A stretch of DNA of 64,000 bases, taken from Auanema rhodensis (taxonomy: Eukaryota; Animalia; Nematoda). This document shows positions 1-21,899 of this stretch, piece after piece. The notes under the pieces were generated by a model, which did not search any database, had not been told where the DNA came from, and was given only the letters and a program-made list of their open reading frames with translations. Numbering within the stretch: the first letter of the stretch is position 1; each line of letters starts with the position of its first letter. The stretch is taken from positions 9,486,001-9,550,000 of the forward strand of contig OZ059895.1 in assembly GCA_964057225.1 (NCBI GenBank). The letters are read 5' to 3'. The position numbers and the translations under genes were made by a program.

Positions 1-3000
1 TAAATAAAATAGATGGAGTGAAATTGCTCGGAAAATATAAATCAGTTTCATGTTTCAGTTTTTGAGCATCACAATATTGAAATTTGAATGTTTTTTAATG
101 ATTAAAATTTAAAAAATGAAATTATGAAATAATGGTAGAAATATAAAATTGTTTAAAATATGGAATTAAATAAAATAGATGGAGTGAAATTGCTTGGAAA
201 ATATAAATCAGTTTCATGTTTCAGTTTTTGAGCATCACAATATTGAAATTTGAATGTTTTTTAATGATTAAAAATTTAAAAAATGAAATTATGAAATAGT
301 GGTAGAAATATAAAATTGTTTAAAATATGGAATTAAATAAAATAGATGGAGTGAAATTGCTTGGAAAATATAAATCAGTTTCATGTTTCAATTTTTGAGC
401 ATCACAATATTGAAATTTAAATGTTTTTTAATGATTAAAAATTTAAAAAATGAAATTATGAAATAGTGGTAGAAATATAAAATTGTTTAAAATATGGAAT
501 TAAATAAAATAAATGGAGTGAAATTGCTTGGAAAATATAAATCAGTTTCATGTTTCAATTTTTGAGCATCACAATATTGAAATTTAAATGTTTTTTAATG
601 ATTAAAAATTTAAAAAATGAAATTATGAAATAGTGGTAGAAATATAAAATTGTTTAAAATATGGAATTAACTAAAATAGATGGAGTGAAATTGCTTGGAA
701 AATATAAATCAGTTCCATGTTTCAATTTTTGAGCATCACAATATTGAAATTTAAATGTTTTTTAATGATAAAAAATTTTAAAAATGAAATTATGAAATAG
801 TGGTAGAAATATAAAATTGTTTAAAATATGGAATTAAATAAAATAGATGGAGTGAAATTGCTTGGAAAATATAAATCAGTTTCATGTTTCAATTTTTGAG
901 CATCACAATATTGAAATTTAAATGTTTTTTAATGATTAAAAATTTAAAAAATGAAATTATGAAATAGTGGTAGAAATATAAAATTGTTTAAAATATGGAA
1001 TTAAATAAAATAGATGAAGTGAACTTGCTTGGAAAATATAAATCAGTTTCATGTTTCAATTTTTGAGCATCACAATATTGAAATTTAAATGTTTTTTAAT
1101 GATTAAAAATTTAAAAAATGAAATTATGAAATAGTGGTAGAAATATAAAATTGTTTAAAATATGGAATTAAATAAAATAGATGGAGTGAAATTGCTTGGA
1201 AAATATGAATCAGTTTCATGTTTCAATTTTTGAGCATCACAATATTGAAATTTAAATATTTTTTAATGATTAAAAATTTAAAAAATGAAATTATGAAATA
1301 GTGGTAGAAATATAAAATTGTTTAAAATATGGAATTAAATAAAATAGATGAAGTGAACTTGCTTGGAAAATATAAATCAGTTTCATGTTTCAATTTTTGA
1401 GCATCACAATATTGAAATTTAAATGTTTTTTAATGATTAAAAATTTAAAAAATGAAATTATGAAATAGTGGTAGAAATATAAAATTGTTTAAAATTTAAA
1501 TATTTTTTAATGATTAAAAATTTAAAAAATGAAATTATGAAATAGTGGTAGAAATATAAAATTGTTTAAAATATGGAATTAAATAAAATAGATGAAGTGA
1601 ACTTGCTTGGAAAATATAAATCAGTTTCATGTTTCAATTTTTGAGCATCACAATATTGAAATTTAAATGTTTTTTAATGATTAAAAATTTAAAAAATGAA
1701 ATTATGAAATAGTGGTAGAAATATAAAATTGTTTAAAATATGGAATTAAATAAAATAGATGAAGTGAACTTGCTTGGAAAATATAAATCAGTTTCATGTT
1801 TCAATTTTTGAGCATCACAATATTGAAATTTAAATGTTTTTTAATGATTAAAAATTTAAAAAATGAAATTATGAAATAGTGGTAGAAATATAAAATTGTT
1901 TAAAATATGGAATTAAATAAAATAGATGGAGTGAAATTGCTTGGAAAATATGAATCAGTTTCATGTTTCAATTTTTGAGCATCACAATATTGAAATTTAA
2001 ATATTTTTTAATGATTAAAAATTTAAAAAATGAAATTATGAAATAGTGGTAGAAATATAAAATTGTTTAAAATATGGAATTAAATAAAATAGATGAAGTG
2101 AACTTGCTTGGAAAATATAAATCAGTTTCATGTTTCAATTTTTGAGCATCACAATATTGAAATTTAAATGTTTTTTAATGATTAAAAATTTAAAAAATGA
2201 AATTATGAAATAGTGGTAGAAATATAAAATTGTTTAAAATTTAAATATTTTTTAATGATTAAAAATTTAAAAAATGAAATTATGAAATAGTGGTAGAAAT
2301 ATAAAATTGTTTAAAATATGGAATTAAATAAAATAGATGAAGTGAACTTGCTTGGAAAATATAAATCAGTTTCATGTTTCAATTTTTGAGCATCACAATA
2401 TTGAAATTTAAATGTTTTTTAATGATTAAAAATTTAAAAAATGAAATTATGAAATAGTGGTAGAAATATAAAATTGTTTAAAATATGGAATTAAATAAAA
2501 TAGATGAAGTGAACTTGCTTGGAAAATATAAATCAGTTTCATGTTTCAATTTTTGAGCATCACAATATTGAAATTTAAATGTTTTTTAATGATTAAAAAT
2601 TTTAAAAATGAAATTATGAAATAGTGGTAGAAATATAAAATTGTTTAAAATATGGAATTAAATAAAATAGATGGAGTGAAATTGCTTGGAAAATATAAAT
2701 CAGTTTCATGTTTCAATTTTTGAGCATCACAATATTGAAATTTAAATGTTTTTTAATGATTAAAAATTTAAAAAATGAAATTATGAAATAGTGGTAGAAA
2801 TATAAAATTGTTTAAAATATGGAATTAAATAAAATAAATGGAGTGAAATTGCTTGGAGAATATAAATCAGTTTCATGTTTCAGTTTTTGAGCATCACAAT
2901 ATTGAAATTTGAATGTTTTTTTAATGATTAAAAATTTAAAAAATGAATTTATGAAATAGTGGTAGAAATATAAAATTGTTTAAAATATGGAATTAAATAA

Positions 3001-6000
3001 AATAAATGGAGTGAAATTGCTTGGAAAATATAAATCAGTTTCATGTTTCAATTTTTGAGCATCACAATATTGAAATTTAAATGTTTTTTAATGATTAAAA
3101 ATTTAAAAAATGAAATTATGAAATAGTGGTAGAAATATAAAATTGTTTAAAATATGGAATTAAATAAAATAGATGGAGTGAAATTGCTTGGAAAATATAA
3201 ATCAGTTTCATGTTTCAGTTTTCAAGCATCACAATATTGAAATTTGAATGTTTTTTTAATGATTAAAAATTTAAAAAATGAAATTATGAAATAGTGGTAG
3301 AAATATAAAATTGTTTAAAATATGGAATTAAATAAAATAGATGGAGTGAAATTGCTTGGAAAATATAAATCAGTTTCATGTTTCAGTTTTTAAGCATCAC
3401 AATATTGAAATTTGAATGTTTTTTTAATGATTAAAAATTTAAAAAATGAAATTATGAAATAGTGGTAGAAATATAAAACTGTTTAAAATATGGAATTAAA
3501 TAAAATAAATGGAGTGAAATTGCTTGGAAAATATAAATCAGTTTCATGTTTCAGTTTTTGAGCATCACAATATTGAAATTTGAATGTTTTTTAATGATTA
3601 AAAATTTAAAAAATGAAATTATGAAATAGTGGTAGAAATATAAAATTGTTTAAAATATGGAATTAAATAAAATAGATGGAGTGAAATTGCTTGGAAAATA
3701 TAAATCAGTTTCATGTTTCAATTTTTGAGCATCACAATATTGAAATTTAAATGTTTTTTAATGATTAAAAATTTAAAAAATGAAATTATGAAATAGTGGT
3801 AGAAATATAAAATTGTTTAAAATATGGAATTAAATAAAATAAATGGAGTGAAATTGCTTGGAAAATATAAATCAGTTTCATGTTTCAATTTTTGAGCATC
3901 ACAATATTGAAATTTAAATGTTTTTTAATGATTAAAAATTTAAAAAATGAAATTATGAAATAGTGGTAGAAATATAAAATTGTTTAAAATATGGAATTAA
4001 CTAAAATAGATGGAGTGAAATTGCTTGGAAAATATAAATCAGTTCCATGTTTCAATTTTTGAGCATCACAATATTGAAATTTAAATGTTTTTTAATGATA
4101 AAAAATTTTAAAAATGAAATTATGAAATAGTGGTAGAAATATAAAATTGTTTAAAATATGGAATTAAATAAAATGAATGGAGTGAAATTGCTTGGAAAAT
4201 ATAAATCAGTTTCATGTTTCAATTTTTGAGCATCACAATATTGAAATTTAAATGTTTTTTAATGATTAAAAATTTAAAAAATGAAATTATGAAATAGTGG
4301 TAGAAATATAAAATTGTTTAAAATATGGAATTAAATAAAATAGATGAAGTGAACTTGCTTGGAAAATATAAATCAGTTTCATGTTTCAATTTTTGAGCAT
4401 CACAATATTGAAATTTAAATGTTTTTTAATGATTAAAAATTTAAAAAATGAAATTATGAAATAGTGGTAGAAATATAAAATTGTTTAAAATATGGAATTA
4501 AATAAAATAGATGGAGTGAAATTGCTTGGAAAATATGAATCAGTTTCATGTTTCAATTTTTGAGCATCACAATATTGAAATTTAAATATTTTTTAATGAT
4601 TAAAAATTTAAAAAATGAAATTATGAAATAGTGGTAGAAATATAAAATTGTTTAAAATATGGAATTAAATAAAATAGATGAAGTGAACTTGCTTGGAAAA
4701 TATAAATCAGTTTCATGTTTCAATTTTTGAGCATCACAATATTGAAATTTAAATGTTTTTTAATGATTAAAAATTTAAAAAATGAAATTATGAAATAGTG
4801 GTAGAAATATAAAATTGTTTAAAATATGGAATTAAATAAAATAGATGAAGTGAACTTGCTTGGAAAATATAAATCAGTTTCATGTTTCAATTTTTGAGCA
4901 TCACAATATTGAAATTTAAATGTTTTTTAATGATTAAAAATTTTAAAAATGAAATTATGAAATAGTGGTAGAAATATAAAATTGTTTAAAATATGGAATT
5001 AAATAAAATAGATGGAGTGAAATTGCTTGGAAAATATAAATCAGTTTCATGTTTCAATTTTTGAGCATCACAATATTAAAATTTAAATGTTTTTTAATGA
5101 TTAAAAATTTAAAAAATGAAATTATGAAATAGTGGTAGAAATATAAAATTGTTTAAAATATGGAATTAAATAAAATAAATGGAGTGAAATTGCTTGGAGA
5201 ATATAAATCAGTTTCATGTTTCAGTTTTTGAGCATCACAATATTGAAATTTGAATGTTTTTTTAATGATTAAAAATTTAAAAAATGAATTTATGAAATAG
5301 TGGTAGAAATATAAAATTGTTTAAAATATGGAATTAAATAAAATAAATGGAGTGAAATTGCTTGGAAAATATAAATCAGTTTCATGTTTCAATTTTTGAG
5401 CATCACAATATTGAAATTTAAATGTTTTTTAATGATTAAAAATTTAAAAAATGAAATTATGAAATAGTGGTAGAAATATAAAATAGTTTAAAATATGGAA
5501 TTAAATAAAATAGATGGAGTGAAATTGCTTGGAAAATATAAATCAGTTTCATGTTTCAGTTTTTAAGCATCACAATATTGAAATTTGAATGTTTTTTTAA
5601 TGATTAAAAATTTAAAAAATGAAATTATGAAATAGTGGTAGAAATATAAAATTGTTTAAAATATGGAATTAAATAAAATAGATGGAGTGAAATTGCTTGG
5701 AAAATATAAATCAGTTTCATGTTTCAGTTTTTAAGCATCACAATATTGAAATTTGAATGTTTTTTTAATGATTAAAAATTTAAAAAATGAAATTATGAAA
5801 TAGTGGTAGAAATATAAAACTGTTTAAAATATGGAATTAAATAAAATAAATGGAGTGAAATTGCTTGGAAAATATAAATCAGTTTCATGTTTCAGTTTTT
5901 GAGCATCACAATATTGAAATTTGAATGTTTTTTAATGATTAAAAATTTAAAAAATGAAATTATGAAATAGTGGTAGAAATATAAAATTGTTTAAAATATG

Positions 6001-7413
6001 GAATTAGATAAAATAGATGAAGTGAACTTGCTTGGAAAATATAAATCAGTTTCATGTTTCAGTTTTTGAGCATCACAATATTGAAATTTTAATGTTTTTT
6101 TAATGATTAAAAATTTAAAAAATGAAATTATGAAATAGTGGTAGAAATATAAAATTGTTTAAAATATGGAATTAGATAAAATAGATGAAGTGAACTTGCT
6201 TGGAAAATATAAATCAGTTTCATGTTTCAGTTTTTGAGCATCACAATATTGAAATTTTAATGTTTTTTTAATGATTAAAAATTTAAAAAATGAAATTATG
6301 AAATAGTGGTAGAAATATAAAATTGTTTAAAATATGGAATTAAATAAAATAAATGGAGTGAAATTGCTTGGAAAATGTAAATCAGTTTCATGTTTCAATT
6401 TTTGAGCATCACAATATTGAAATTTAAATGTTTTTTAATGATTAAAAATTTAAAAAATGAAATTATGAAATAGTGGTAGAAATATAAAATTGTTTAAAAT
6501 ATGGAATTAAATAAAATAGATGAAGTGAACTTGCTTGGAAAATATAAATCAGTTTCATGTTTCAATTTTTGAGCATCACAATATTGAAATTTAAATGTTT
6601 TTTAATGATTAAAAATTTAAAAAATGAAATTATGAAATAGTGGTAGAAATATAAAATTGTTTAAAATATGGAATTAAATAAAATAGATGGAGTGAAATTG
6701 CTTGGAAAATATAAATCAGTTTCATGTTTCAGTTTTTAAGCATCACAATATTGAAATTTGAATGTTTTTTTAATGATTAAAAATTTAAAAAATGAAATTA
6801 TGAAATAGTGGTAGAAATATAAAATTGTTTAAAATATGGAATTAAATAAAATAGATGGAGTGAAATTGCTTGGAAAATATAAATCAGTTCCATGTTTCAA
6901 TTTTTGAGCATCACAATATTGAAATTTAAATGTTTTTTAATGATTAAAAATTTAAAAAATGAAATTATGAAATAGTGGTAGAAATATAAAATTGTTTAAA
7001 ATATGGAATTAAATAAAATAGATGAAGTGAAATTGCTTGGAAAATATAAATCAGTTCCATGTTTCAATTTTTGAGCATCACAATATTGAAATTTAAATGT
7101 TTTTTAATGATTAAAAATTTAAAAAATGAAATTATGAAATAGTGGTAGAAATATAAAATTGTTTAAAATATGGAATTAAATAAAATAGATGGAGTGAAAT
7201 TGCTTGGAAAATATAAATCAGTTCCATGTTTCAATTTTTGAGCATCACAATATTGAAATTTAAATGTTTTTTAATGATTAAAAATTTTAAAAATGAAATT
7301 ATGAAATAGTGGTAGAAATATAAAATTGTTTAAAATATGGAATTAAATAAAATAGATGGAGTGAAATTGCTTGGAAAATATAAATCAGTTTCATGTTTCA
7401 ATTTTTGAGCATC
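1..7413. repeat. 167-bp AT-rich tandem satellite array, left flank (about 44 monomers; continues beyond window start)
   Basis: Monomer starts (taaataaaatagatgg...) recur at 167, 334, 501 and 668, giving a 167-bp period (168 bp when the T-tract has 7 T). The consensus has about 32 G+C per 167 bp (19% GC) and no CpG. No ORFs in the track. Confidence 0.99.
7409..7413 (+). repeat. Left target-site duplication (GCATC)
   Basis: ...ttttga GCATC|TGTGCT...; the same 5-mer follows the 3' LTR, and an uninterrupted monomer has only one copy. Confidence 0.93.
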
Positions 7414-7946
7414 TGTGCTGAAGCACTCTCATCCCGTGATAATAGTGTTCCTCCTTAGTTTAAGTTCAATTGTACTTCTTTATTGTCCTCTCTTTGTACT
7501 ATCCATTATCCTCAACTATCTAATCGATAATCCTGTAAGTTGTCACCAACGGCCGATTTGCCGATGAATCACCTATCGCCCTTTGCCATCTGATCCATTA
7601 GGCAAGATCTTAGGCGCGATAGCCGTCGCCCACTTGCAAGGGGGATGAATCACATAGGATTTAGACCCCTCCTCTCGCTTTCTACAATTAATACATTATC
7701 TATCACTTCCGGGGACCTAGTATATAAACCCGCAATAATTCTTCTAAATCATGTCTCAATATTATCCTGCCACCGCTATCATCTTCCCGTCAATTTATTT
7801 CTGTTTTACTCGTATTGTATTCGTATCACCGATAATAAACTCTTCTCTTGTACTCGCGACTATTGCCTATTACTTGGACTAATATTCCACTACCACTTAA
7901 CCACAAATGCCCGTTATTCGCTCTCCAACTAGAGGACAAAACGACA
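7414..7946 (+). repeat. 5' LTR, full length, 533 bp (TGT...ACA)
   Basis: Starts immediately after the TSD with TGT and ends ACGACA directly before the TGG of the PBS. 7564-7946 is repeated at 14754-15136. Confidence 0.95.
7721..7728 (+). promoter_or_regulatory. Putative TATA box in LTR U3 (TATATAAA; copy at 14911-14918)
   Basis: Canonical TATA motif about 110 bp upstream of the AATAAA, as expected for a U3-R-U5 layout. Confidence 0.6.
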
Positions 7947-9253
7947 TGGTGCATCAAGCCGAACAATGGAACAGCAGCTGCTCAATATTACTCGCTAAGC
8001 TCAAGGACAACGACGCAAGGAGGAAATCATATGCGGTACGTCAAGTTACTAATACCTCCAACAAAACCCAAAGCATGATTGACACCCGTGAAAGGGAGAT
8101 TTCAAACATCAATGGGGACATCCTCGCCATCAACAAACTGATGGACGAGATGAAACACATCCCAACCGACCTACGCCCCGAGGACCAAAGTCGGATCACG
8201 AAGAACGAAGAAACTCTGCGGAAACACATCTCTACCCTACTGTCATACAGTAACGACATACAAGAACAAGTGAACTACCTGAAGGGTCTCAACCACACTG
8301 AGAACAGCCCTGACCCAACACACACAGACAGTTCACAGCCCTCTGAGCACCACCTCATTGGAACTGCTGAACTCACACACGCCACACAACCTCGAAGCTG
8401 GGAAACATATCGATCACGGCCAACACTCAAACCTGTCGATATCCCACGCTTCGATGGCAACGTGAAAAGCTGGAAAAACTTTTGGTGCTTGTTCCACACA
8501 CTTATACACTCATCGAACATGCCCACCATAGAAAAGTTTAACTACCTTCGCCAGTCATTAACAGGAGAAGCAGCTTCACAAATAGCTTCATTCCCAACGG
8601 ATGAAGACTACTACTTCAGCGCAGTACATCACCTGCAGGATCTATATGATGATAACGACAACATCACACAACATCTCATGCTGGAATTTCTCCAGATACA
8701 AGCGAGAACATCCAACCAGCATGACCTCCTCTCCATGATGGACAAGATCGCAGGCATTTTTCGCCAAACTGAAGGAAACAGGAACGCCGAACTCAACTCC
8801 CTCGCTGTAGTTATCTTACACAAGAAACTACCAGGGAACCTTCTCCAAGAGATCTACAAATCATTCCCCTCGGAAAAAACACCTGACATCAGAGACTTAG
8901 TAGACATCACAAGGCGACATATCCGATGCCAAAACAAGGTGAAAATTTTCGCAGCAGATCGGTTCGAGAAACCAATCACACGAGTCTACAACTCACCACC
9001 AGGGAACACCTACAATTCCCAACGCAACAAACCAGAAGCTAAAAAACTAGCAAAAACATCCAGTTGCATCTTCTGCCAGAAACCTCACGCCCCATGGGAC
9101 TGTGACACAACAAAGTCGAGGAAGGAGCGTCTAACCATTCTCAACCAGGAAAAGAGATGCATCAACTGTCTCCGCAAAACACACAACACGGAGTCATGTC
9201 CAAGCAAACGAACATGCTCCAAATGCGGAGAAAAACACATCGACATCTTATGC
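7907..9253 (+). other. gag: Gag region: N-terminal coiled coil, DUF1759-type capsid domain (from about 8426) and three Cys-His zinc knuckles (9065-9253)
   Basis: LKPVDIPRFDGNVKSWKNFW...EKFNYLRQSLTGEAA; CIFCQKPHAPWDC, CINCLRKTHNTESC, CSKCGEKHIDILC. Confidence 0.9.
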
Positions 9254-12200
9254 GCTAATAAAAAGAAGACGACCAAAGTCAACTTAATTGAGAGCACACC
9301 CTACAATGACGAGGAAACCGAAGAACACACGGTTCAATTCTCCTCCCAGTTCTCTACCAATCAATTCAAAAGCGCCCTCCTTCCAATAGGAGAAATCAAG
9401 ATAATGACGAATGGAAAATTTTCCACAATCCCAGCCATCTTGGACTCTGGATCGGACACATCTTTCATCGAAGAAGAACTTGCCAAAGAACTTCAACTAC
9501 CCGTTATAGAATCTAAACGCGTAAAAATCAAGACTTTCGGCAACACAAAAAGCGTTGAACACCTCACAAAGGTGAAAGCAACAATCAAAGGAACAGTCTC
9601 CAACATCACTGCACACCTTTGGACAAAAAAGACCTTGACGGGTCCCATCAAAACAGTCCGAATTCCAAAATCAGACAACTCCACCTTCAAATTAAATCAA
9701 GGAACCTACGTCAATCCACGCATACTCATAGGCTCCGATTTAATGTGGCAAGCTCTGACAGCCATTATACCAATCTCTGACGACCACATACAAGTCAAGA
9801 CACAATTTGGAGACTTCATAACAGGAAAAGCAAGCGACCAACCATCCATCAACGCCTTCTCAGTTATAACTGGAAACACCTCTATCCCGATAGACACATG
9901 GAACAAAAACTTCATCGAGGAGCAGCAAGAATTTACGGGAACCGAACAAGAAGAAAAACAAGCACGAGACAAACTAGTATTGGAACAATTCCAATCCACC
10001 ATCCAAAAAAGAGACGATGGTTATTACGTCTCCTTCCCATGGAAAGACAACATCAATCTTCTCCCCGACAACAAATCACTTGCTCACAGACGCCTCATAA
10101 GTCTAGTCGTAAAATTATCTCAACAACCAGATTCACTAGCAGCATACGACAAAATCATTCAAGAACAACTAGACAATGGAATAATCGAACCAGCAGAAGA
10201 ACCATACCCTGACGCTCAAACGATACACTACATTGCTCATCAAGCAGTTCTGACCCCACAAAAGGAAACAACCAAACTAAGGATAGTATACGACGCTTCC
10301 GGACACTACCAGAACAGACCCAGTCTCAACGACGTCATCCATCAAGGACCACTAATCCTACCATCACTAGTAGGAATGATTTTACGCTTCCGCTGCGGGA
10401 AAATGGCACTGATAGCAGACGTAAAGAAAGCATTTCTTCAAATAAGACTCCACGAGTCAGAACGTGACGCTACAAGATTCTTTTGGCTGAGAGATATCTC
10501 CAAACCAATGAGCACCGAAAATACAAGAACCCTACGCTTCTGTAGAGTTCCCTTTGGAATCAATGTCTCGCCATTTCTCCTCGCAGCCACAATTCGTCAT
10601 CATCTGGAACAAAGAAGCAACGAAAACTTCCTAGCCCACCAAATTAAAGAGAACCTTTACGTGGACAACCTATTACTTGCCACAAACTCAGAAGAAGATC
10701 TCAAACTGGGATACCAAGAAACAAAGGACATATTCGCAGAAATGAACATGTCACTACAAGAATTCATAACGAACAGTCCGGACTTCAACAAAAACCTACT
10801 ACTAGAGGAGAAAAACACCTCATCAAAACCAAAAGTTCTTGGATTACCATGGGACACAGAAACGGACCAATGGATCATCCAAACCAAGCTTCCAGAAACA
10901 AAACTGACCAAACGTGGTATTACACAAGCCATTGCATCGATCTTTGACCCCATGGGTTTGATAAGTCCATGCCTACACCCACTACGACTCTTCCTACAGA
11001 ATCTATGGACAGAGAATTACGACTGGGACACTACGTTGCCTGAAGAACACCAAAAAACATGGCATACACTAGCCGAAAACTTCAACTTCAACAAAACTCA
11101 GCAACGAGCCCTACCAGAAGATCCGAATCAGCAGTACCACTTAGTTACCTGCACAGATTCTAGCGGATCAGCCCTAGGATTCTGCACATACCTCCTGGCA
11201 GCCACATCACGCATACCTACCTTGGTCTTCGCTAAATCCAAGCTACACTCAAAGAACTCCAACATCACCATCCCGAAAGCAGAAATATCAGCTCTCACAG
11301 TAGGTGTCACAAACACCAACAAAATCATCAAAGAAATGAAAGACAACATCAAAATCTTGTCTACAACATTTTTATCGGACTCAGAAATAACGTTAGCATG
11401 GATAAGACGAAAACCTGATCAGAAGACAACAGGGGTCTTAGTACAAAACAGAATCAAGGAAATCTACGACCACATCGACCAAATCGAAGATATGGATATC
11501 AAGACATACTTTGGTTACATCAACACCAAAGACAACCCAGCCGACATTGCCACAAGAGGTTGCACAACAGACGAGCTACTAAATCATTTCTGGTGGAATC
11601 CCAAAGCACAAATTGACAAAGCCATTAATGGTCCGCTCTTCTCATTACCTCAACCAGAAATCACAGTGAATACAGCTAGGACATCTGAAGAATACGAAGA
11701 ATCCTGGCTAGAACACTGCAACACATGGATCCAAGCACAAGAAAAATGGATCGCAGAGAATTATTCTCTGTTAGAGAAACGACTACCGACACATTACGAA
11801 GAAGCCGAACTGAACCTTCTCCATCTGCATCAACACAACCTACTCGTACGTCTTACAGCAGCACAACGAAACGACTTAAGACCACTGTTGAAAGATCATC
11901 TTTGGCACAGCCGCGGACGAATGCAGAATAGTGAACTAGATGAGAGTGCAAAACTTCCTATCATCGTCTTACCCAAAACAAGGACAGCCACCTTAATTAT
12001 CGAACACGTCCACAACCAATTTCACAAAAGCACGTCACACACCATGGCCGAAGTTCGACAGAAATTCTGGATACCACAACTTCGCTCACAAACCATCTCA
12101 GTCATACGAAGATGCGTAGAGTGCCAACGAATGAACAACCGACCATTCACGTACCCCCCCTCTGGCGACATACCCAGCAGAAGACTCAACCGAAGCCGAC

Positions 12201-14791
12201 CATTCCAACACATAGGCCTCGACTACTTCGGACCGCTGACGGTAAAGGACAAACCTCACAAAGTATGGGGTTGCATCTATACCTGCACAGTCACACGCCT
12301 ACTACACTTAGAAGTTATAGAAGACCTTACCACAAAAGCATTTCTTAACTGTCTAAGGAAGATATGGGCACGTAGAGGATATCCGGAAAGCATCACTTGC
12401 GATAACGCCACCACATTCGAACTAGGACAGAAAGTGGCGAACAGACTGTTCAGCATCGCCAACACGACACAAACAGGTGACAGCCATAAGATAAAATGGC
12501 ACAACATAACACCTTACGCCCCCTGGCAAGGAGGATTCTACGAACGCCTTATCCGATCAGTAAAAGACTCTCTTCACAAAACCATGAAGAACATACCAAC
12601 AAGCGAAGAACTGTCAATCACCTTAGCTGAATGTGAAGCAACACTCAACACTCGCCCACTCACATACATCGGATCCGACACAGGAACAGATGAAATAATC
12701 AGACCATGTGACTTTATTCACAAAGACTTGGACCTTAACATTTCATTCCACTCGGACGATGACGACGAAGAATACCTCGACAACCCTGCCTTACAAACAA
12801 GAGCAGACACAGAAAAAGCCATCCATTCCTCCAGACAACGCACAAACAAATTCTGGGAGTTATGGATCGAACTCTACCTCAAAGAGTTAAGAGAACACCA
12901 CAAGAACAACATCTCGGTGAAGAAAGCTGGTTCCAATCAACAGCCAAGAATCGACCAATACGTACTTATCAACGACAGTCCGATACCTCGGTACAAATGG
13001 CCGATTGGAAAAATCACACATATCTCACCAGACAAGAACGGACAGACCAGAGAAGTCACGCTTCTTTCAGAATCAGGCAGAGAACTCAAACGACCAGTGA
13101 ACCTTCTACATCCGCTGGAACTCTCAGACGACGACATTCCTGAAAGACTACGAAACACTAATCCTTCGAGAGATGTCCCACCAATAAGGCAGTCTAATCC
13201 AAGGAACGTACCTAGATTATGGTACGGAGAACAAAGAACAAACCTATTCACCTTTCTATCAATATTCTCAATACTTCTACCCATCATCTCTGCCACACCA
13301 ACAATATCTTGCAACTACCAAGGAGTTCAAATTCAAGGAATCTCGACAAACAATCAACAAGTATGCATCCACAACACATGCTATAACAACAGCCACGATG
13401 GAAACCTTATATTTCCCCCAGCGGACATCCTAACCAACTACGACGTAAGCTGGACCTTCCAACACAATTCCAGAATTCATCACATGATGATCACATGCCC
13501 AGCGGTACATTTCTGCTCCACTGTCACATGCACCTTCTGCACTGCTACACTTTTCAATCCATCTTGCTGGCCATGGACATCAATGCTACTTCTCACATTT
13601 CTTACATACATGCTCACAGCCTTATGCTACGGCATTCTATACACACCATGGGTCATAGGAAAACCAATCCGACTTTGGATACGATTATGCACCACCATCA
13701 TAATGACCATAATCAAGACGATCCGACACACACGTCAACCGAGGCCGCACAAATCAGCCATACCACTCCTAGCTCTGATGAGTTTGATACAAGTCACCTT
13801 CTCATGCCAAGAACTCGCGATCACATCCTCCGAACAGTCCACTTGCATCCAAGAGAAATGCCACATACAAACCACGCATAATCTCAACATCAGTCCATAC
13901 ACTCAAGAAGCCTGCCTCACATTATCAAACAATCAAGACAATATCTCTTTCTTGAGAATACAGTGGATCAAAACCAACTACAAGTGTGAGACTCGGTCCC
14001 TTTACTTCACAAGAGAATCAAAGACTCACGTACAAGACAGCAAAAGATGCCCACACACTGGATCATGCCAAGAAGAAAAATGCAGCAACATCACCCCAAA
14101 CTCAACTGTCAGCGAACTTCACATAGCTAACCAGTACCCAGGAACAACACACTGCACAGAATCCTGTGGTGGCATAGGATGCGGATGTTTTTACCCTTCA
14201 TCAGGATGTCTTTTCTACAGGACCTACCAGAAGCCGACTGATACCTCGATATATGAAGTATACGACTGCAACTCTTGGACACCTACAACGGACCTCAGCC
14301 TAACATACCGAAACGGATCAACCACCATCTCCAAAAACGTCACTCTATACTCTGACGTTCCGAAGCACATATATCCATTCACACTAACTATTACAAGTCT
14401 CTCACCGCCAGTCATACCTGCGATGCAATACAAATTCATCCGCAACCTTACAAGAACAGCTATATGGAATCAACAACCCATGCTCTCATGCCCGAGCAGA
14501 AGAGACGCTATAAACATGAACTGTAACGCCACACCCACCTGCGTTTGCACACCGGCAGAAGACCAGGTCAACTGCCAGTGCCACGAAACATCCATCACCT
14601 CAGCCTTTACCAACGTACAATCAGCTATTCCAATGCTAACACCCTCTTACATGATCATGAACGAGGAAAGAAACTTACGGATCAACATTAACAGCAACAT
14701 GTTAACTGTAATCCACATCAAAATCGACGGGGAATTCCACACTTCCTCATCTCATGAATCACCTATCGCCCTTTGCCATCTGATCCATTAG
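7907..14791 (+). CDS. gag-pol-env: Gag-Pol-Env polyprotein of a BEL/Pao retroelement (2294 aa); Env C-terminally truncated and fused to about 12 LTR-derived codons
   Basis: One stop-free ORF with all catalytic motifs recognisable: DSG, ADVKKAF/YVDN, DSS/SDS/NPAD, HHCC and D-D-E. True start is uncertain (ATGs at 7907, 7946, 8075 and later). Confidence 0.95.
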   Translation: MPVIRSPTRGQNDMVHQAEQWNSSCSILLAKLKDNDARRKSYAVRQVTNTSNKTQSMIDTREREISNINGDILAINKLMDEMKHIPTDLRPEDQSRITKNEETLRKHISTLLSYSNDIQEQVNYLKGLNHTENSPDPTHTDSSQPSEHHLIGTAELTHATQPRSWETYRSRPTLKPVDIPRFDGNVKSWKNFWCLFHTLIHSSNMPTIEKFNYLRQSLTGEAASQIASFPTDEDYYFSAVHHLQDLYDDNDNITQHLMLEFLQIQARTSNQHDLLSMMDKIAGIFRQTEGNRNAELNSLAVVILHKKLPGNLLQEIYKSFPSEKTPDIRDLVDITRRHIRCQNKVKIFAADRFEKPITRVYNSPPGNTYNSQRNKPEAKKLAKTSSCIFCQKPHAPWDCDTTKSRKERLTILNQEKRCINCLRKTHNTESCPSKRTCSKCGEKHIDILCANKKKTTKVNLIESTPYNDEETEEHTVQFSSQFSTNQFKSALLPIGEIKIMTNGKFSTIPAILDSGSDTSFIEEELAKELQLPVIESKRVKIKTFGNTKSVEHLTKVKATIKGTVSNITAHLWTKKTLTGPIKTVRIPKSDNSTFKLNQGTYVNPRILIGSDLMWQALTAIIPISDDHIQVKTQFGDFITGKASDQPSINAFSVITGNTSIPIDTWNKNFIEEQQEFTGTEQEEKQARDKLVLEQFQSTIQKRDDGYYVSFPWKDNINLLPDNKSLAHRRLISLVVKLSQQPDSLAAYDKIIQEQLDNGIIEPAEEPYPDAQTIHYIAHQAVLTPQKETTKLRIVYDASGHYQNRPSLNDVIHQGPLILPSLVGMILRFRCGKMALIADVKKAFLQIRLHESERDATRFFWLRDISKPMSTENTRTLRFCRVPFGINVSPFLLAATIRHHLEQRSNENFLAHQIKENLYVDNLLLATNSEEDLKLGYQETKDIFAEMNMSLQEFITNSPDFNKNLLLEEKNTSSKPKVLGLPWDTETDQWIIQTKLPETKLTKRGITQAIASIFDPMGLISPCLHPLRLFLQNLWTENYDWDTTLPEEHQKTWHTLAENFNFNKTQQRALPEDPNQQYHLVTCTDSSGSALGFCTYLLAATSRIPTLVFAKSKLHSKNSNITIPKAEISALTVGVTNTNKIIKEMKDNIKILSTTFLSDSEITLAWIRRKPDQKTTGVLVQNRIKEIYDHIDQIEDMDIKTYFGYINTKDNPADIATRGCTTDELLNHFWWNPKAQIDKAINGPLFSLPQPEITVNTARTSEEYEESWLEHCNTWIQAQEKWIAENYSLLEKRLPTHYEEAELNLLHLHQHNLLVRLTAAQRNDLRPLLKDHLWHSRGRMQNSELDESAKLPIIVLPKTRTATLIIEHVHNQFHKSTSHTMAEVRQKFWIPQLRSQTISVIRRCVECQRMNNRPFTYPPSGDIPSRRLNRSRPFQHIGLDYFGPLTVKDKPHKVWGCIYTCTVTRLLHLEVIEDLTTKAFLNCLRKIWARRGYPESITCDNATTFELGQKVANRLFSIANTTQTGDSHKIKWHNITPYAPWQGGFYERLIRSVKDSLHKTMKNIPTSEELSITLAECEATLNTRPLTYIGSDTGTDEIIRPCDFIHKDLDLNISFHSDDDDEEYLDNPALQTRADTEKAIHSSRQRTNKFWELWIELYLKELREHHKNNISVKKAGSNQQPRIDQYVLINDSPIPRYKWPIGKITHISPDKNGQTREVTLLSESGRELKRPVNLLHPLELSDDDIPERLRNTNPSRDVPPIRQSNPRNVPRLWYGEQRTNLFTFLSIFSILLPIISATPTISCNYQGVQIQGISTNNQQVCIHNTCYNNSHDGNLIFPPADILTNYDVSWTFQHNSRIHHMMITCPAVHFCSTVTCTFCTATLFNPSCWPWTSMLLLTFLTYMLTALCYGILYTPWVIGKPIRLWIRLCTTIIMTIIKTIRHTRQPRPHKSAIPLLALMSLIQVTFSCQELAITSSEQSTCIQEKCHIQTTHNLNISPYTQEACLTLSNNQDNISFLRIQWIKTNYKCETRSLYFTRESKTHVQDSKRCPHTGSCQEEKCSNITPNSTVSELHIANQYPGTTHCTESCGGIGCGCFYPSSGCLFYRTYQKPTDTSIYEVYDCNSWTPTTDLSLTYRNGSTTISKNVTLYSDVPKHIYPFTLTITSLSPPVIPAMQYKFIRNLTRTAIWNQQPMLSCPSRRDAINMNCNATPTCVCTPAEDQVNCQCHETSITSAFTNVQSAIPMLTPSYMIMNEERNLRININSNMLTVIHIKIDGEFHTSSSHESPIALCHLIH
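7947..7955 (+). promoter_or_regulatory. Primer binding site, tRNA-Gly(GCC)-like (TGGTGCATC)
   Basis: Begins with TGG immediately after the LTR. It is complementary to the 3' end (...GATGCACCA) typical of invertebrate tRNA-Gly(GCC); the match appears to weaken after 9 nt. Confidence 0.75.
9380..9830 (+). other. Aspartic protease domain (catalytic DSG at 9443-9451); boundaries approximate
   Basis: AILDSGSDTSFI ... PRILIGSD. Confidence 0.88.
10220..10800 (+). other. Reverse transcriptase domain (YVDN at 10658-10669); boundaries approximate
   Basis: TTKLRIVYDAS, ADVKKAFLQI, RVPFGINVSPFLL, NLYVDN. Confidence 0.93.
10830..11600 (+). other. RT connection / RNase H region (Pao 'Peptidase_A17'-type); boundaries approximate
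   Basis: KVLGLPWD, SIFDPMGLISP, CTDSS, TIPKAE, SDSEITLAWI, DNPADIATRG. Confidence 0.88.
11990..13130 (+). other. Integrase (HHCC zinc domain, DDE core with D12221, D12401 and E12542, C-terminal DUF5641-like domain); boundaries approximate
   Basis: HVHNQFH...CVEC; GLDYFGP; CDNATTF; WQGGFYERLI; FWELWIELYL...WPIGKI...RPVNLLHPLE. Confidence 0.92.
13241..13804 (+). other. env: Envelope part 1: internal signal peptide, short Cys-rich Gn-like ectodomain, TM segment and signal peptide for Gc
   Basis: Hydrophobic LFTFLSIFSILLPIISA|T; CPAVHFCSTVTCTFCTATLFNPSC resembles the phlebovirus Gn membrane-proximal Cys cluster; TM WTSMLLLTFLTYMLTALCYGILY; second signal AIPLLALMSLIQVTFS|C. Confidence 0.75.
13805..14753 (+). 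other. env: Envelope part 2: phlebovirus-like Gc class II fusion glycoprotein, domains I-II only (about 316 aa); fusion loop at 14165-14191
   Basis: Starts CQEL (cf. phlebovirus CSEL); EACL; KRCPHTGSC; CTESCGGIGCGCFYPSSGCLFYR (cf. phlebovirus [23 protein letters not shown]); many N-glycosylation sequons (NIS, NIT, NST, NGS, NVT, NLT, NAT). Confidence 0.9.
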
Positions 14792-15136
14792 GCAAGATCT
14801 TAGGCGCGATAGCCGTCGCCCACTTGCAAGGGGGATGAATCACATAGGATTTAGACCCCTCCTCTCGCTTTCTACAATTAATACATTATCTATCACTTCC
14901 GGGGACCTAGTATATAAACCCGCAATAATTCTTCTAAATCATGTCTCAATATTATCCTGCCACCGCTATCATCTTCCCGTCAATTTATTTCTGTTTTACT
15001 CGTATTGTATTCGTATCACCGATAATAAACTCTTCTCTTGTACTCGCGTCTATTGCCTATTACTTGGACTAATATTCCACTACCACTGAACCACAAATGC
15101 CCGTTATTCGCTCTCCAACTAGAGGACAAAACGACA
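14754..15136 (+). repeat. 3' LTR, 5'-truncated (383 bp; lacks the first 150 bp of U3)
   Basis: Identical to 7564-7946 except A7859/T15049 and T7898/G15088. No match to 7414-7563 and no polypurine tract upstream. Confidence 0.95.
15024..15029 (+). terminator. Putative polyadenylation signal AATAAA in the 3' LTR (copy at 7834-7839)
   Basis: AATAAA followed by pyrimidine-rich sequence, downstream of the TATA box. Confidence 0.6.
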
Positions 15137-15141
15137 GCATC
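15137..15141 (+). repeat. Right target-site duplication (GCATC)
   Basis: ...acgACA|GCATC acaatattg... Confidence 0.93.
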
Positions 15142-18100
15142 ACAATATTGAAATTTAAATGTTTTTTAATGATTAAAAATTTAAAAAATGAAATTATGAA
15201 ATAGTGGTAGAAATATAAAATTGTTTAAAATATGGAATTAAATAAAATAGATGAAGTGAACTTGCTTGGAAAATATAAATCAGTTTCATGTTTCAATTTT
15301 TGAGCATCACAATATTGAAATTTAAATGTTTTTTAATGATTAAAAATTTAAAAAATGAAATTATGAAATAGTGGTAAAAATATAAAATTGTTTAAAATAT
15401 GGAATTAAATAAAATAGATGGAGTGAAATTGCTTGGAAAATATAAATCAGTTTCATGTTTCAATTTTTGAGCATCACAATATTGAAATTTAAATGTTTTT
15501 TAATGATTAAAAATTTAAAAAATGAAATTATGAAATAGTGGTAGAAATATAAAATTGTTTAAAATATGGAATTAAATAAAATAGACGGAGTGAAATTGCT
15601 TGGAAAATATAAATCAGTTCCATGTTTCAATTTTTGAGCATCACAATATTGAAATTTAAATGTTTTTTAATGATTAAAAATTTAAAAAACGAAATTATGA
15701 AATAGTGGTAGAAATATAAAATTGTTTAAAATATGGAATTAAATAAAATAGATAGAGTGAAATTGCTTGGAAAATATACATCAGTTCCATGTTTCAATTT
15801 TTGAGCATCACAATTTTGAAATTTAAATGTTTTTTAATGATTAAAAATTTAAAAAACGAAATTATGAAATAGTGGTAGAAATATAAAATTGTTTAAATAT
15901 GGAATTAAATAAAATAGATGGAGTGAAATTGCTTGGAAAATATAAATCAGTTTCATGTTTCAGTTTTTAAGCATCACAATATTGAAATTTGAATGTTTTT
16001 TTAATGATTAAAAATTTAAAAAATGAAATTATGAAATAGTGGTAGAAATATAAAATTGTTTAAAATATGGAATTAAATAAAATAGATGAAGTGAACTTGT
16101 TTGGAAAATTTAAATCAGTTTCATGTTTCAATTTTTGAGCATCACAATATTGAAATTTAAATGTTTTTTAATGATTAAAAATTTAAAAAATGAAATTATG
16201 AAATAGTGGTAGAAATATAAAATTGTTTAAAATATGGAATTAAATAAAATAGATGAAGTGAACTTGCTTGGAAAATATAAATCAGTTTCATGTTTCAGTT
16301 TTTGAGCATCACAATATTGAAATTTAAATGTTTTTTAATGATTAAAAATTTAAAAAATGAAATTATGAAATAGTGGTAGAAATATAAAATTGTTTAAAAT
16401 ATGGAATTAAATAAAATAGATGGAGTGAACTTGCTTGGAAAATATAAATCAGTTTCATGTTTAAATTTTTGAGCATCACAATATTGAAATTTAAATGTTT
16501 TTTAATGATTAAAAATCTAAAAAATGAAATTATGAAATAGTGGTAGAAATATAAAATTGTTTAAAATATGGAATTGAATAAAATAGATGGAGTGAAATTG
16601 CTTGGAAAATATAAATCAGTTTCATGTTTCAGTTTTTGAGCATCACAATATTGAAATTTAAATGTTTTTTAATGATTAAAAATCTAAAAAATGAAATTAT
16701 GAAATAGTGGTAGAAATATAAAATTGTTTAAAATATGGAATTAAATAAAATAGATGAAGTTAACTTGCTTGGAAAATATAAATCAGTTTCATGTTTCAGT
16801 TTTTGAGCATCACAATATTGAAATTAGAATGTTTTTTTAATGATTAAAAATTCAAAAAATGAAATTATGAAATAGTGGTAGAAATATAAAATTGTTTAAA
16901 ATATGGAATTAAATAAAATAGATGGAGTGAAATTGCTTGGAAAATATAAATCAGTTTCATGTTTCAGTTTTTGAGCATCACAATATTGAAATTTAAATGT
17001 TTTTTAATGATTAAGAACTTAAAAAATGAAATTATGAAATAGTGGTAGAAATATAAAATTGTTTAAAATATGGAATTAAATAAAATAGATGAAGTGAACT
17101 TGCTTGGAAAATATAAATCTGTTTCATGTTTCAATTTTTGAGCATCACAATATTGAAATTTAAATGTTTTTTGATGATTAAAAATTTAAAAAATGAAATT
17201 ATGAAATAGTGGTAGAAATATAAAATTGTTTAAAATATGGAATTAAATAAAATAGATGGAGTGAAATTGCTTGGAAAATATAAATCAGTTTCATGTTTCA
17301 GTTTTTGAGCATCACAATATTGAAATTTAAATGTTTTTTAATGATTAAAAATTTAAAAAATGAAATTATGAAATAATGGTAGAAATATAAAATTGTTTAA
17401 AATATGGAATTAAATAAAATAGATGGAGTGAAATTGCTTGGAAAATATGAATCAGTTTCATGTTTCAGTTTTTGAGCATCACAATATTGAAATTTAAATG
17501 TTTTTTAATGATTAAAAATTTAAAAAATGAAATTATGAAATAGTGGTAGAAATATAAAATTGTTTAAAATATGGAATTAAATAAAATAGATGGAGTGAAA
17601 TTGCTTGGAAAATATAAATCAGTTTCATGTTTCAGTTTTTGAGCATCACAATATTGAAATTTAAATGTTTTTTAATGATTAAGAATTTAAAAAATGAAAT
17701 TATGAAATAGTGGTAGAAATATAAAACTGTTTAAAATATGGAATTAAATAAAATAGATGGAGTGAAATTGCTTGGAAAATATAAATCAGTTTCATGTTTC
17801 AATTTTTGAGCATCACAATATTGAAATTTAAATGTTTTTTAATGATTAAAAATTTAAAAAATGAAATTATGAAATAGTGGTAGAAATATAAAATTGTTTA
17901 AAATATGGAATTAAATAAAATAGATGAAGTGAACTTGCTTGGAAAATATAAATCTGTTTCATGTTTCAATTTTTGAGCATCACAATATTGAAATTTAAAT
18001 GTTTTTTGATGATTAAAAATTTAAAAAATGAAATTATGAAATAGTGGTAGAAATATAAAATTGTTTAAAATATGGAATTAAATAAAATAGATGGAGTGAA

Positions 18101-21100
18101 ATTGCTTGGAAAATATAAATCAGTTTCATGTTTCAGTTTTTGAGCATCACAATATTGAAATTTAAATGTTTTTTAATGATTAAAAATTTAAAAAATGAAA
18201 TTATGAAATAATGGTAGAAATATAAAATTGTTTAAAATATGGAATTAAATAAAATAGATGGAGTGAAATTGCTTGGAAAATATGAATCAGTTTCATGTTT
18301 CAGTTTTTGAGCATCACAATATTGAAATTTAAATGTTTTTTAATGATTAAAAATTTAAAAAATGAAATTATGAAATAGTGGTAGAAATATAAAATTGTTT
18401 AAAATATGGAATTAAATAAAATAGATGGAGTGAAATTGCTTGGAAAATATAAATCAGTTTCATGTTTCAGTTTTTGAGCATCACAATATTGAAATTTAAA
18501 TGTTTTTTAATGATTAAGAATTTAAAAAATGAAATTATGAAATAGTGGTAGAAATATAAAACTGTTTAAAATATGGAATTAAATAAAATAGATGGAGTGA
18601 AATTGCTTGGAAAATATAAATCAGTTTCATGTTTCAATTTTTGAGCATCACAATATTGAAATTTAAATGTTTTTTAATGATTAAAAATTTAAAAAATGAA
18701 ATTATGAAATAGTGGTAGAAATATAAAATTGTTTAAAATATGGAATTAAATAAAATAGATGGAGTGAACTTGCTTGGAAAATATAAATCAGTTTCATGTT
18801 TAAATTTTTGAGCATCACAATATTGAAATTTAAATGTTTTTTAATGATTAAAAATCTAAAAAATGAAATTATGAAATAGTGGTAGAAATATAAAATTGTT
18901 TAAAATATGGAATTAAATAAAATAGATGGAGTGAAATTGCTTGGAAAATATGAGTCAGTTTCATGTTTCAGTTTTTGAGCATCACAATATTGAAATTTGA
19001 ATGTTTTTTTAATGATTAAAAATTTAAAAAATGAAATTATGAAATAGTGGTAGAAATATAAAATTGTTCAAAATATGGAATTGAATAAAATAGATGAAGT
19101 TAACTTGCTTGGAAAATATAAATCAGTTTCATGTTTCAGTTTTTGAGCATCACAATATTAAAATTAGAATGTTTTTTTAATGATTAAAAATTCAAAAAAT
19201 GAAATTATGAAATAGTGGTAGAAATATAAAATTGTTTAAAATATGGAATTAAATAAAATAGATGGAGTGAAATTGCTTGGAAAATATAAATCAGTTTCAT
19301 GTTTCAGTTTTTGAGCATCACAATATTGAAATTTAAATGTTTTTTAATGATTAAAAATCTAAAAAATGAAATTATGAAATAGTGGTAGAAATATAAAATT
19401 GTTTAAAATATGGAATTAAATAAAATAGATGGAGTGAAATTGCTTGGAAAATATGAATCAGTTTCATGTTTCAGTTTTTGAGCATCACAATATTGAAATT
19501 TGAATGTTTTTTTAATGATTAAAAATTTAAAAAATGAAATTATGAAATAGTGGTAGAAATATAAAATTGTTTAAAATATGGAATTAAATAAAATAGATGG
19601 AGTGAAATTGCTTGGAAAATATAAATCAGTTTCATGTTTCAGTTTTTGAGCATCACAATATTGAAATTTAAATGTTTTTTAATGATTAAAAATCTAAAAA
19701 ATGAAATTATGAAATAGTGGTAGAAATATAAAATTGTTTAAAATATGGAATTAAATAAAATAGATGGAGTGAAATTGCTTGGAAAATATAAATCAGTTTC
19801 ATGTTTCAGTTTTTGAGCATCACAATATTGAAATTTAAATGTTTTTTAATGATTAAAAATTTAAGAAATGAAATTATGAAATAATGGTAGAAATATAAAA
19901 TTGTTTAAAATATGGAATTAAATAAAATAGATGGAGTGAAATTGCTTGGAAAATATGAATCAGTTTCATGTTTCAGTTTTTGAGCATCACAATATTGAAA
20001 TTTGAATGTTTTTTTAATGATTAAAAATTTAAAAAATGAAATTATGAAATAGTGGTAGAAATATAAAATTGTTTAAAATATGGAATTAAATAAAATAGAT
20101 GGAGTGAAATTGCTTGGAAAATATAAATCTGTTTCATGTTTCAGTTTTTGAGCATCACAATATTGAAATTTGAATGTTTTTTTAATGATTAAGAATTTAA
20201 AAAATGAAATTATGAAATAGTGGTAGAAATATAAAATTGTTTAAAATATGGAATTAAATAAAATAGATGAAGTGAACTTGCTTGGAAAATATAAATCTGT
20301 TTCATGTTTCAATTTTTGAGCATCACAATATTGAAATTTAAATGTTTTTTGATGATTAAAAATTTAAAAAATGAAATTATGAAATAGTGGTAGAAATATA
20401 AAATTGTTTAAAATATGGAATTAAATAAAATAGATGGAGTGAAATTGCTTGGAAAATATAAATCAGTTTCATGTTTCAGTTTTTGAGCATCACAATATTG
20501 AAATTTAAATGTTTTTTAATGATTAAAAATTTAAAAAATGAAATTATGAAATAATGGTAGAAATATAAAATTGTTTAAAATATGGAATTAAATAAAATAG
20601 ATGAAGTGAACTTGCTCGGAAAATATAAATCTGTTTCATGTTTCAATTTTTGAGCATCACAATATTGAAATTTAAATGTTTTTTGATGATTAAAAATTTA
20701 AAAAATGAAATTATGAAATAGTGGTAGAGATATAAAATTGTTTAAAATATGGAATTAAATAAAATAGATGGAGTGAAATTGCTTGGAAAATATAAATCAG
20801 TTTCATGTTTCAGTTTTTGAGCATCACAATATTGAAATTTAAATGTTTTTTAATGATTAAAAATTTAAAAAATGAAATTATGAAATAATGGTAGAAATAT
20901 AAAATTGTTTAAAATATGGAATTAAATAAAATAGATGGAGTGAAATTGCTTGGAAAATATAAATCAGTTTCATGTTTCAGTTTTTGAGCATCACAATATT
21001 GAAATTTAAATGTTTTTTAATGATTAAAAATTTAAAAAATGAAATTATGAAATAGTGGTAGAAATATAAAATTGTTTAAAATATGGAATTAAATAAAATA

Positions 21101-21899
21101 GATGGAGTGAAATTGCTTGGAAAATATAAATCAGATTCATGTTTCAGTTTTTAAGCATCACAATATTGAAATTTGAATGTTTTTTTAATGATTAAAAATT
21201 TAAAAAATGAAATTATGAAATAGTGGTAGAAATATAAAATTGTTTAAAATATGGAATTAAATAAAATAGATGGAGTGAAATTGCTTGGAAAATATAAATC
21301 AGTTTCATGTTTCAATTTTTGAGCATCACAATATTGAAATTTAAATGTTTTTTAATGATTAAAAATTTAAAAAATGAAATTATGAAATAGTGGTAGAAAT
21401 ATAAAATTGTTTAAAATATGGAATTAAATAAAATAGATGGAGTGAAATTGCTTGGAAAATATAAATCAGTTTCATGTTTCAATTTTTGAGCATCACAATA
21501 TTGAAATTTAAATGTTTTTTAATGATTAAAAATTTAAAAAATGAAATTATGAAATAGTGGTAGAAATATAAAATTGTTTAAAATATGGAATTAAATAAAT
21601 TAGATGGAGTGAAATTGCTTGGAAAATATAAATCAGTTTCATGTTTCAGTTCTTGAGCATCACAATATTGAAATTTAAATGTTTTTTAATGATTAAAAAT
21701 TTAAAAAATGAAATTATGAAATAGTGGTAGAAATATAAAATTGTTTAAAATATGGAATTAAATAAATTAGATGGAGTGAAATTGCTTGGAAAATATAAAT
21801 CAGTTTCATGTTTCAGTTCTTGAGCATCACAATATTGAAATTTAAATGTTTTTTAATGATTAAAAATTTAAAAAATGAAATTATGAAATAGTGGTAGAA

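Follow-up and report, generated by a model that had tools for sequence, protein, structure and literature searches.

Members of the Belpaoviridae have LTRs of 0.2-1.2 kb, a genome of 4.2-10 kb and a primer-binding site complementary to tRNA-Arg or tRNA-Gly; the function of the envelope for a belpaovirus is not known (ICTV profile, PMC8742986). According to the available text of PMC9094657, nine elements of Ancylostoma ceylanicum carry Gag, Pol and Env in a single frame, fusion activity of Gc has been shown, and Cer13 is the nearest RT neighbour of Atlas virus. Nematode belpaoviruses have three CCHC knuckles in Gag and the motif YVDN in RT (PMC9094657; 10.64898/2026.03.22.711591, available parts of both). 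The second of these sources defines an Atlas clade, by a phlebovirus Gn-Gc-like Env and by a capsid core >50% identical to Atlas CA at >70% coverage. Furthermore, satellite arrays of metazoans often contain Bel-Pao elements, and elements within arrays are younger (10.64898/2026.09.17.752431, available part).

Single-frame Gag-Pol-Env belpaoviruses and Bel-Pao elements in satellite arrays are thus already in print; the new part is a defective family member from Auanema. It is an LTR retrotransposon of the BEL/Pao group (Belpaoviridae) whose Gc is of the phlebovirus class II type; it interrupts once, at 7414-15136, the 167-nt satellite that makes up the window (the whole stretch of DNA analyzed, positions 1-64000). 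Coordinates of the features are given in Table 1.

Table 1. Features of the element and of the satellite around it (positions in the 64000-nt window)
Feature	Position	Strand	Basis and remarks
167-nt AT-rich satellite, left arm	1..7413	.	TRF period 167, 97-98% matches, GC ~19%; continues past window edge
Left target-site duplication GCATC	7409..7413	+	Begins exactly 167 nt past the preceding monomer anchor
Complete 5' LTR, 533 nt, TG...CA	7414..7946	+	Self-comparison of window; TATA box 7721, AATAAA 7834
Single Gag-Pol-Env frame, 2294 aa, stop-free	7907..14791	+	ORF call; first ATG in LTR, second in-frame ATG 7946
Likely primer-binding site	7947..7964	+	TGG immediately after 5' LTR; 24 nt behind 7957 absent in comparison with contigs of other copies
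Gag	8450..9253	+	Capsid region (DUF1759) at aa 182-315; CCHC knuckles at aa 387, 418 and 437
Pol	9398..13114	+	Protease LDSG aa 512, RT YVDN aa 918, RNase H/Peptidase_A17, integrase HHCC + D-D-E, DUF5641
Gn-like part	13238..13804	+	Hydropathy: short ectodomain between predicted signal segment and predicted membrane helix, followed by predicted Gc signal
Gc, domains I and II including fusion loop	13805..14753	+	PF07245, AF2 model, Foldseek; domain III, stem and membrane anchor missing
Deletion junction	14753..14754	+	Gc abuts LTR nt 151, 1-nt overlap; polypurine tract absent
3' LTR remnant, 383 nt	14754..15136	+	Equals nt 151-533 of 5' LTR, 2 mismatches; TATA box 14911, AATAAA 15024
167-nt satellite, right arm, 48.9 kb	15137..64000	.	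TRF and monomer comparison; exact higher-order duplications >=1.5 kb
Right target-site duplication GCATC	15137..15141	+	5 nt, same as left

Relation to known belpaoviruses

The original prediction had described an env-bearing nematode belpaovirus with one stop-free frame of 2294 aa running from Gag through integrase into the envelope. The frame was confirmed at 7907-14791, and Pfam, sequence matches, the RT tree and the predicted fold all agree with the assignment. A profile search of the ORF gave DUF1759, aspartic protease, RVT_1, Peptidase_A17, zinc finger and core of integrase, DUF5641 and Phlebovirus_G2, in this order; the acidic motifs of both RNase H and integrase are present in Pol. The Gag region produced no significant match to PDB sequences. 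The Belpaoviridae order of Pol (protease, RT, RNase H, integrase) and the BEL/Pao domains are present, and the sizes (5' LTR of 533 nt, 3' remnant of 383 nt, element of 7.7 kb) lie within the family ranges. The polypurine tract expected of the family was lost with a deletion described below; the window copy is a defective derivative of the Belpaoviridae, not a working member.

An RT-RNase H tree of 81 rows was built by a quick method, without bootstrap and without a non-BEL outgroup, after 43 of 123 matches were dropped (short matches, with distant ones thinned). Within a clade of 40 rows (SH-aLRT 99) the element occupies a long branch, in line with its assignment to BEL/Pao. The named rows of this clade are all nematode, and it contains 17 of the 18 G2-bearing rows of the tree.

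The closest relative found is an element of Auanema sp. JU1783 (P0001), with 52% identity over 1125 aa and 47% in Gc. At 52% it is a different family and, unlike the window copy, it kept domain III and the hydrophobic C-terminal segments. Other env matches had 26-36% identity in one search and 30-43% in another. The C. elegans Cer13-type BEL/Pao elements are similar in being nematode belpaoviruses with a phlebovirus-like Env; Cer13 is likened here by description, and the Caenorhabditis G2-bearing relatives form a separate subclade with 33-34% Gc identity to the element. A metagenome scan for relatives found none. The element thus adds one free-living-nematode family to the known group of env-bearing belpaoviruses.

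With Atlas virus and other A. ceylanicum belpaoviruses (PMC9094657, available text; structure 7A4A) the element shares the stop-free Gag-Pol-Env frame, YVDN, three CCHC knuckles, and Gn followed by Gc with hydrophobic segments in the same order. Atlas Gc is the top match of the element's Gc both by sequence (E 1e-28) and by fold. The differences are in completeness: according to the same text, Atlas has full LTRs that are 100% identical, a 498-aa Gc with anchor and a 421-aa Gn, in contrast to a headless 3' LTR, a 316-aa Gc remnant and a Gn of ~190 aa here. The polyprotein of the element does include a phlebovirus Gn-Gc-like Env. Its capsid, however, reached 33% at best at >=70% coverage in 99 matches to the proteins compared (Atlas CA itself was not among them). 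Judged by capsid similarity, the element probably does not belong to the Atlas clade in the sense of the available part of 10.64898/2026.03.22.711591.

Envelope region and deletion junction

A Gn/Gc cassette with two signal peptides had been predicted, and this was upheld in part. Phlebovirus_G2 (PF07245) matched aa 1967-2271 over its whole length (model positions 1-324 of 324, E 1.2e-83), and hydropathy gave hydrophobic segments at aa ~1778-1802 and ~1892-1912. The segment ahead of Gc (aa ~1950-1966), on the other hand, looks signal-like by eye but is below the hydropathy threshold applied, and Gc is incomplete. The Gn-like part matched the phenuivirus Gn stem weakly (6.6 bits); relatives covered 90-95% of the env query.

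The structure of aa 1967-2282 was predicted with AlphaFold (AF2; 41 sequences, pLDDT 89.9). As expected in the original prediction, the top Foldseek match was Atlas Gc (7A4A; E 1.4e-24, TMq 0.78, TMt 0.58), followed by the Gc of Rift Valley fever virus (RVFV); the model, though, spans ~325 of the 439 target residues of 7A4A, that is, domains I and II only. Of the parts of a working class II fusogen, these two domains and the Cys/Gly fusion loop are retained; domain III, stem and C-terminal anchor are lacking. There was no profile match to Phlebo_G2_C in the ORF and no hydrophobic anchor beyond aa 2000 by hydropathy. The last 12 codons (aa 2283-2294) are read-through into the LTR remnant.

Relatives continue for ~170-205 aa beyond the point equivalent to the break. 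Among 16 long relatives checked, 12 combined 8-9 Cys within the following 120 aa with a hydrophobic segment lying 126-136 aa past the break; the element has neither. Three of the remaining four are without such a hydrophobic segment, and one, a distant relative, has it at 198. Two relatives (P0001 and P0002) have weak Phlebo_G2_C matches just past the break-equivalent point, under the curated cut-off; P0007, P0020 and the element have no match to this profile.

Four relatives (P0001, P0005, P0010 and P0030) reach 400-690 aa past the break-equivalent point, compared with ~200 aa in most; Gc may be followed there by an additional domain or ORF.

We considered recurrent truncation at the domain I-III linker and rejected it: 10 of 59 relatives end near this linker, but end points occur evenly all along Gc.

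The prediction of near-identical LTRs holds for nt 151-533 (383 nt, two mismatches) and fails for the first 150 nt, which occur only once in the window and are missing from the 3' LTR. During reverse transcription, the template for the U3 head of a 5' LTR is the 3' end of the RNA. Given a full head in the 5' LTR next to a headless 3' LTR, the deletion therefore most likely came after integration. The 1-nt overlap at the junction suggests repair of a break by end joining, which we would favour over LTR-LTR recombination. No polypurine tract was found before 14754, where three of the 15 preceding nucleotides are purines; with the tract lost, plus-strand priming should fail. The 5' LTR and the 3' remnant diverge by 0.5% (95% range 0.06-1.9%). 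Both mismatches are sites at which the 5' LTR departs from contigs in all eight sequencing runs compared, which fits change after insertion.

The explanation that we hold to be probable is that a copy of a nematode BEL/Pao element with a phlebovirus-type env inserted by chance into the 167-nt satellite and later lost at least ~0.94 kb, from the interior of Gc to nt 150 of the 3' LTR; it is predicted to be unable to fuse or retrotranspose. That the frame stayed open across two deletions counts against this explanation. Class II fusion needs a fold-back between fusion loop and membrane anchor (PMC9094657, available text); with domain III and the anchor gone, this Gc would be unable to fold back and draw two membranes together. 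Thus the idea of a potentially infectious virus does not extend to the window copy, which lost domain III, stem, anchor and polypurine tract and, as far as its sequence can tell, is likely neither infectious nor able to copy itself. An open reading frame and high LTR identity do not imply an intact provirus. Both LTR copies retain promoter and poly(A) motifs, and predicted products that could still be made are Gag-Pol, Gn with its anchor and a Gc I-II fragment without one.

At the 5' end, the likely primer-binding site may be of tRNA-Gly type; Rfam and ARAGORN had no match over 7000-15500, with no element-encoded tRNA detected. There is no leader between the LTR and gag, as the first ATG lies within the LTR (ORF from 7907); the second in-frame ATG (7946) begins with the last nucleotide of the LTR and is completed by the start of the primer-binding site.

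Other copies in contigs of sequencing runs

The stretch, or a part of it, is contained in 11 of 14 sequencing runs (three studies), and contigs of eight of the 14 were compared. RNA data sets containing it were not among the runs listed, which carries no weight for expression. Contigs omit rare junctions and single-copy variants, and junction counts below are counts among the matches listed. In one comparison, contigs of three of four runs (X1, X2 and X4) diverge from the window at 14754 and extend for 790, 700 and 790 nt, respectively; contigs of X10 had no coverage there. Extension and 150-nt LTR head together put the sequence missing from the window copy at no less than 940 nt. In contigs of other copies the LTR head is preceded by a purine-rich end, and in seven of the eight runs listed contigs carry non-window sequence joined ahead of 7414. 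The whole element in one piece was not seen among the contig pieces listed.

The window's own junction (14753/14754) was not reproduced among the joints and loose ends listed in the eight runs. Such a result would be seen if the 1-kb gap were an assembly error in a repeat-flanked region, with the true copy intact, and repeats embedded in satellite are difficult to assemble. Yet the junction region is clean in every respect considered (an overlap of just 1 nt, TSD, satellite phase, open frame, zero N), single-copy variants get dropped by contigs, and other private differences indicate a distinct, slightly aged copy. Firstly, 24 nt behind 7957, present between 5-nt direct repeats in contigs of six of the eight runs, are absent from the window copy; secondly, this copy differs from X1, X2 and X4 jointly at no fewer than 14 coding places (7985-11767). 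We consider an assembly error very unlikely.

Seven of the 14 coding places are third-position differences (p 0.15 against one third), not distinct from neutral. This bears on another idea: one could speculate that the Gc I-II fragment, although it has no anchor, has been kept as a product, for instance as a soluble decoy or a dominant-negative restricting the family, as the break lies within the linker between domains I and III, the predicted fragment is well folded, its fusion loop is retained and its frame is open. Against this, the copy is single, with a junction unlisted in the contigs; homology ends are evenly spread among 80 relatives without a peak at the linker, and none of 23 long relatives ends there. 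We regard a kept product as extremely unlikely; later loss of Gc and LTR sequence by a once complete copy is still the reading preferred.

It had been predicted that the family was recently active. The contigs give the same picture: the family is polymorphic and is likely to be multi-copy and young or recently active. LTR variants coexist in X3 and X8. The ratio of LTR to internal contig depth was ~2 in X3 and X4, 1.5 in X7 and 1.0 in X5 (where one contig spans both), depth not being copy number; the ratio of satellite to element contig depth was highly variable among runs.

Several side observations were made in these contigs. Frame-breaking gaps occur in other copies: 4 nt of Gn (13494) are missing in X1, at full contig depth, and 83 nt of Pol (9842-9926) are skipped in X2 and X10. 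A variant LTR contig of X3 has, before 7414, a 23-nt stretch unlike the usual internal end; it may belong to a sister subfamily or to a short form with an internal deletion. In X1, X2 and X4, contigs that match only ~40 nt of Pol (10974-11013) and then diverge suggest that the host has another, more distant BEL/Pao family.

Satellite array and germline-restricted DNA

Satellite on both sides and a perfect target-site duplication had been predicted, and both were found: the array fills 1-7413 and 15137-64000 with no further interruption, and GCATC stands on either side of the element. The phase of the satellite is unbroken from left arm to right arm across the insertion, and monomers to the left and right of it are no more divergent than monomers within one side (4.8-5.5 differences). 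Duplication, phase and similarity of monomers identify a genuine insertion into a pre-existing array.

The further suggestion, that the family prefers satellite, has so far remained unsupported, weak as the evidence is since contigs omit rare junctions. There is one insertion in the 56-kb array, no LTR end joined to the 167-nt satellite among the contig rows listed in eight runs, and two clear LTR flanks (X4 behind 7946; X8 before 7412) without a match in the window at three mismatches. An argument from the chance of an insertion hitting a given 56 kb was discarded, because the window was picked for holding the element. The centrophilic LTR elements of satellite arrays (10.64898/2026.09.17.752431, available part) are alike in being young LTR elements inside an array; they differ in that the present element has no demonstrated repeated insertion or targeting domain. 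The chance insertion assumed in the preferred reading is a default rather than a result: a large gene-free array, perhaps of germline-restricted DNA, would be a big target with weak purging. Nematodes are holocentric, thus the array need not be centromeric.

The niche itself had been thought undescribed. This stands to the extent that env-bearing BEL/Pao elements are not singled out in the available parts of the two relevant sources; it does not stand for Bel-Pao elements in metazoan arrays (10.64898/2026.09.17.752431) or for TE-derived genes in eliminated Auanema DNA (10.64898/2026.08.27.747507). According to the available part of the latter, A. rhodense eliminates ~61% of its genome, mostly tandem arrays with units of 167-504 nt; of its 360 eliminated genes, half have TE domains. 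TE-derived genes are concentrated in this repeat-rich DNA, where the authors take selective surveillance to be weak. The 167-nt unit of the window equals the lower bound published there, which is a lead only.

The copy could be defective as described and the family could still be enriched in satellite or germline-restricted DNA, or even occur only there, by integrase preference or by purging elsewhere. The young insertion lies in an otherwise pure array of at least 56 kb; the best relative is from Auanema, a genus in which, as cited above, eliminated arrays have units from 167 nt. Among listed contigs, LTR flanks number one in X4 and none in X1, X2, X5 and X7, even where contigs reach 110-129 kb, and the X4 flank has a contig depth of 4.6 in comparison with 216-441 for the element. 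Such scarcity is expected of a family residing mostly in repeats or low-depth DNA, but assemblers also drop such junctions, and contig depth is not copy number. Besides the selection of the window and the two flanks in other DNA, the contigs of eight runs speak, weakly, against enrichment, with no LTR-satellite junction listed; no chromodomain was matched by Pfam in the ORF, and none of four published Auanema FISH repeat probes matched this satellite. We consider such enrichment unlikely, and chance insertion continues to be our preferred reading.

As the closest relative comes from Auanema, the array may be germline-restricted DNA. A stronger form, with the family almost wholly in germline-restricted repeat DNA discarded from the soma, seems decidedly unlikely to us; its consequences would be considerable. 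A soma-to-germline route of Env is known from Drosophila errantiviruses; an env-bearing endogenous virus without somatic copies would have an Env unable to serve such a route, and programmed DNA elimination would be a refuge for the family or a host defence. Were the family restricted to germline DNA that is eliminated, the role of Env for a belpaovirus could be tested directly in a laboratory nematode, and whether DNA elimination shelters or restrains mobile elements would become testable. Tas elements of Ascaris are reportedly subject to partial somatic elimination. A literature search, with subscription journals mostly outside its coverage, found no env-bearing BEL/Pao element confined to satellite or eliminated DNA.

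The right arm itself (15137-64000) has 109 distinct monomers out of 307, with exact duplications of at least 1.5 kb at offsets of ~1.9-15 kb, indicating recent higher-order expansion. Variant units of 215/217 nt and of 244 nt are repeated in the satellite of this arm.
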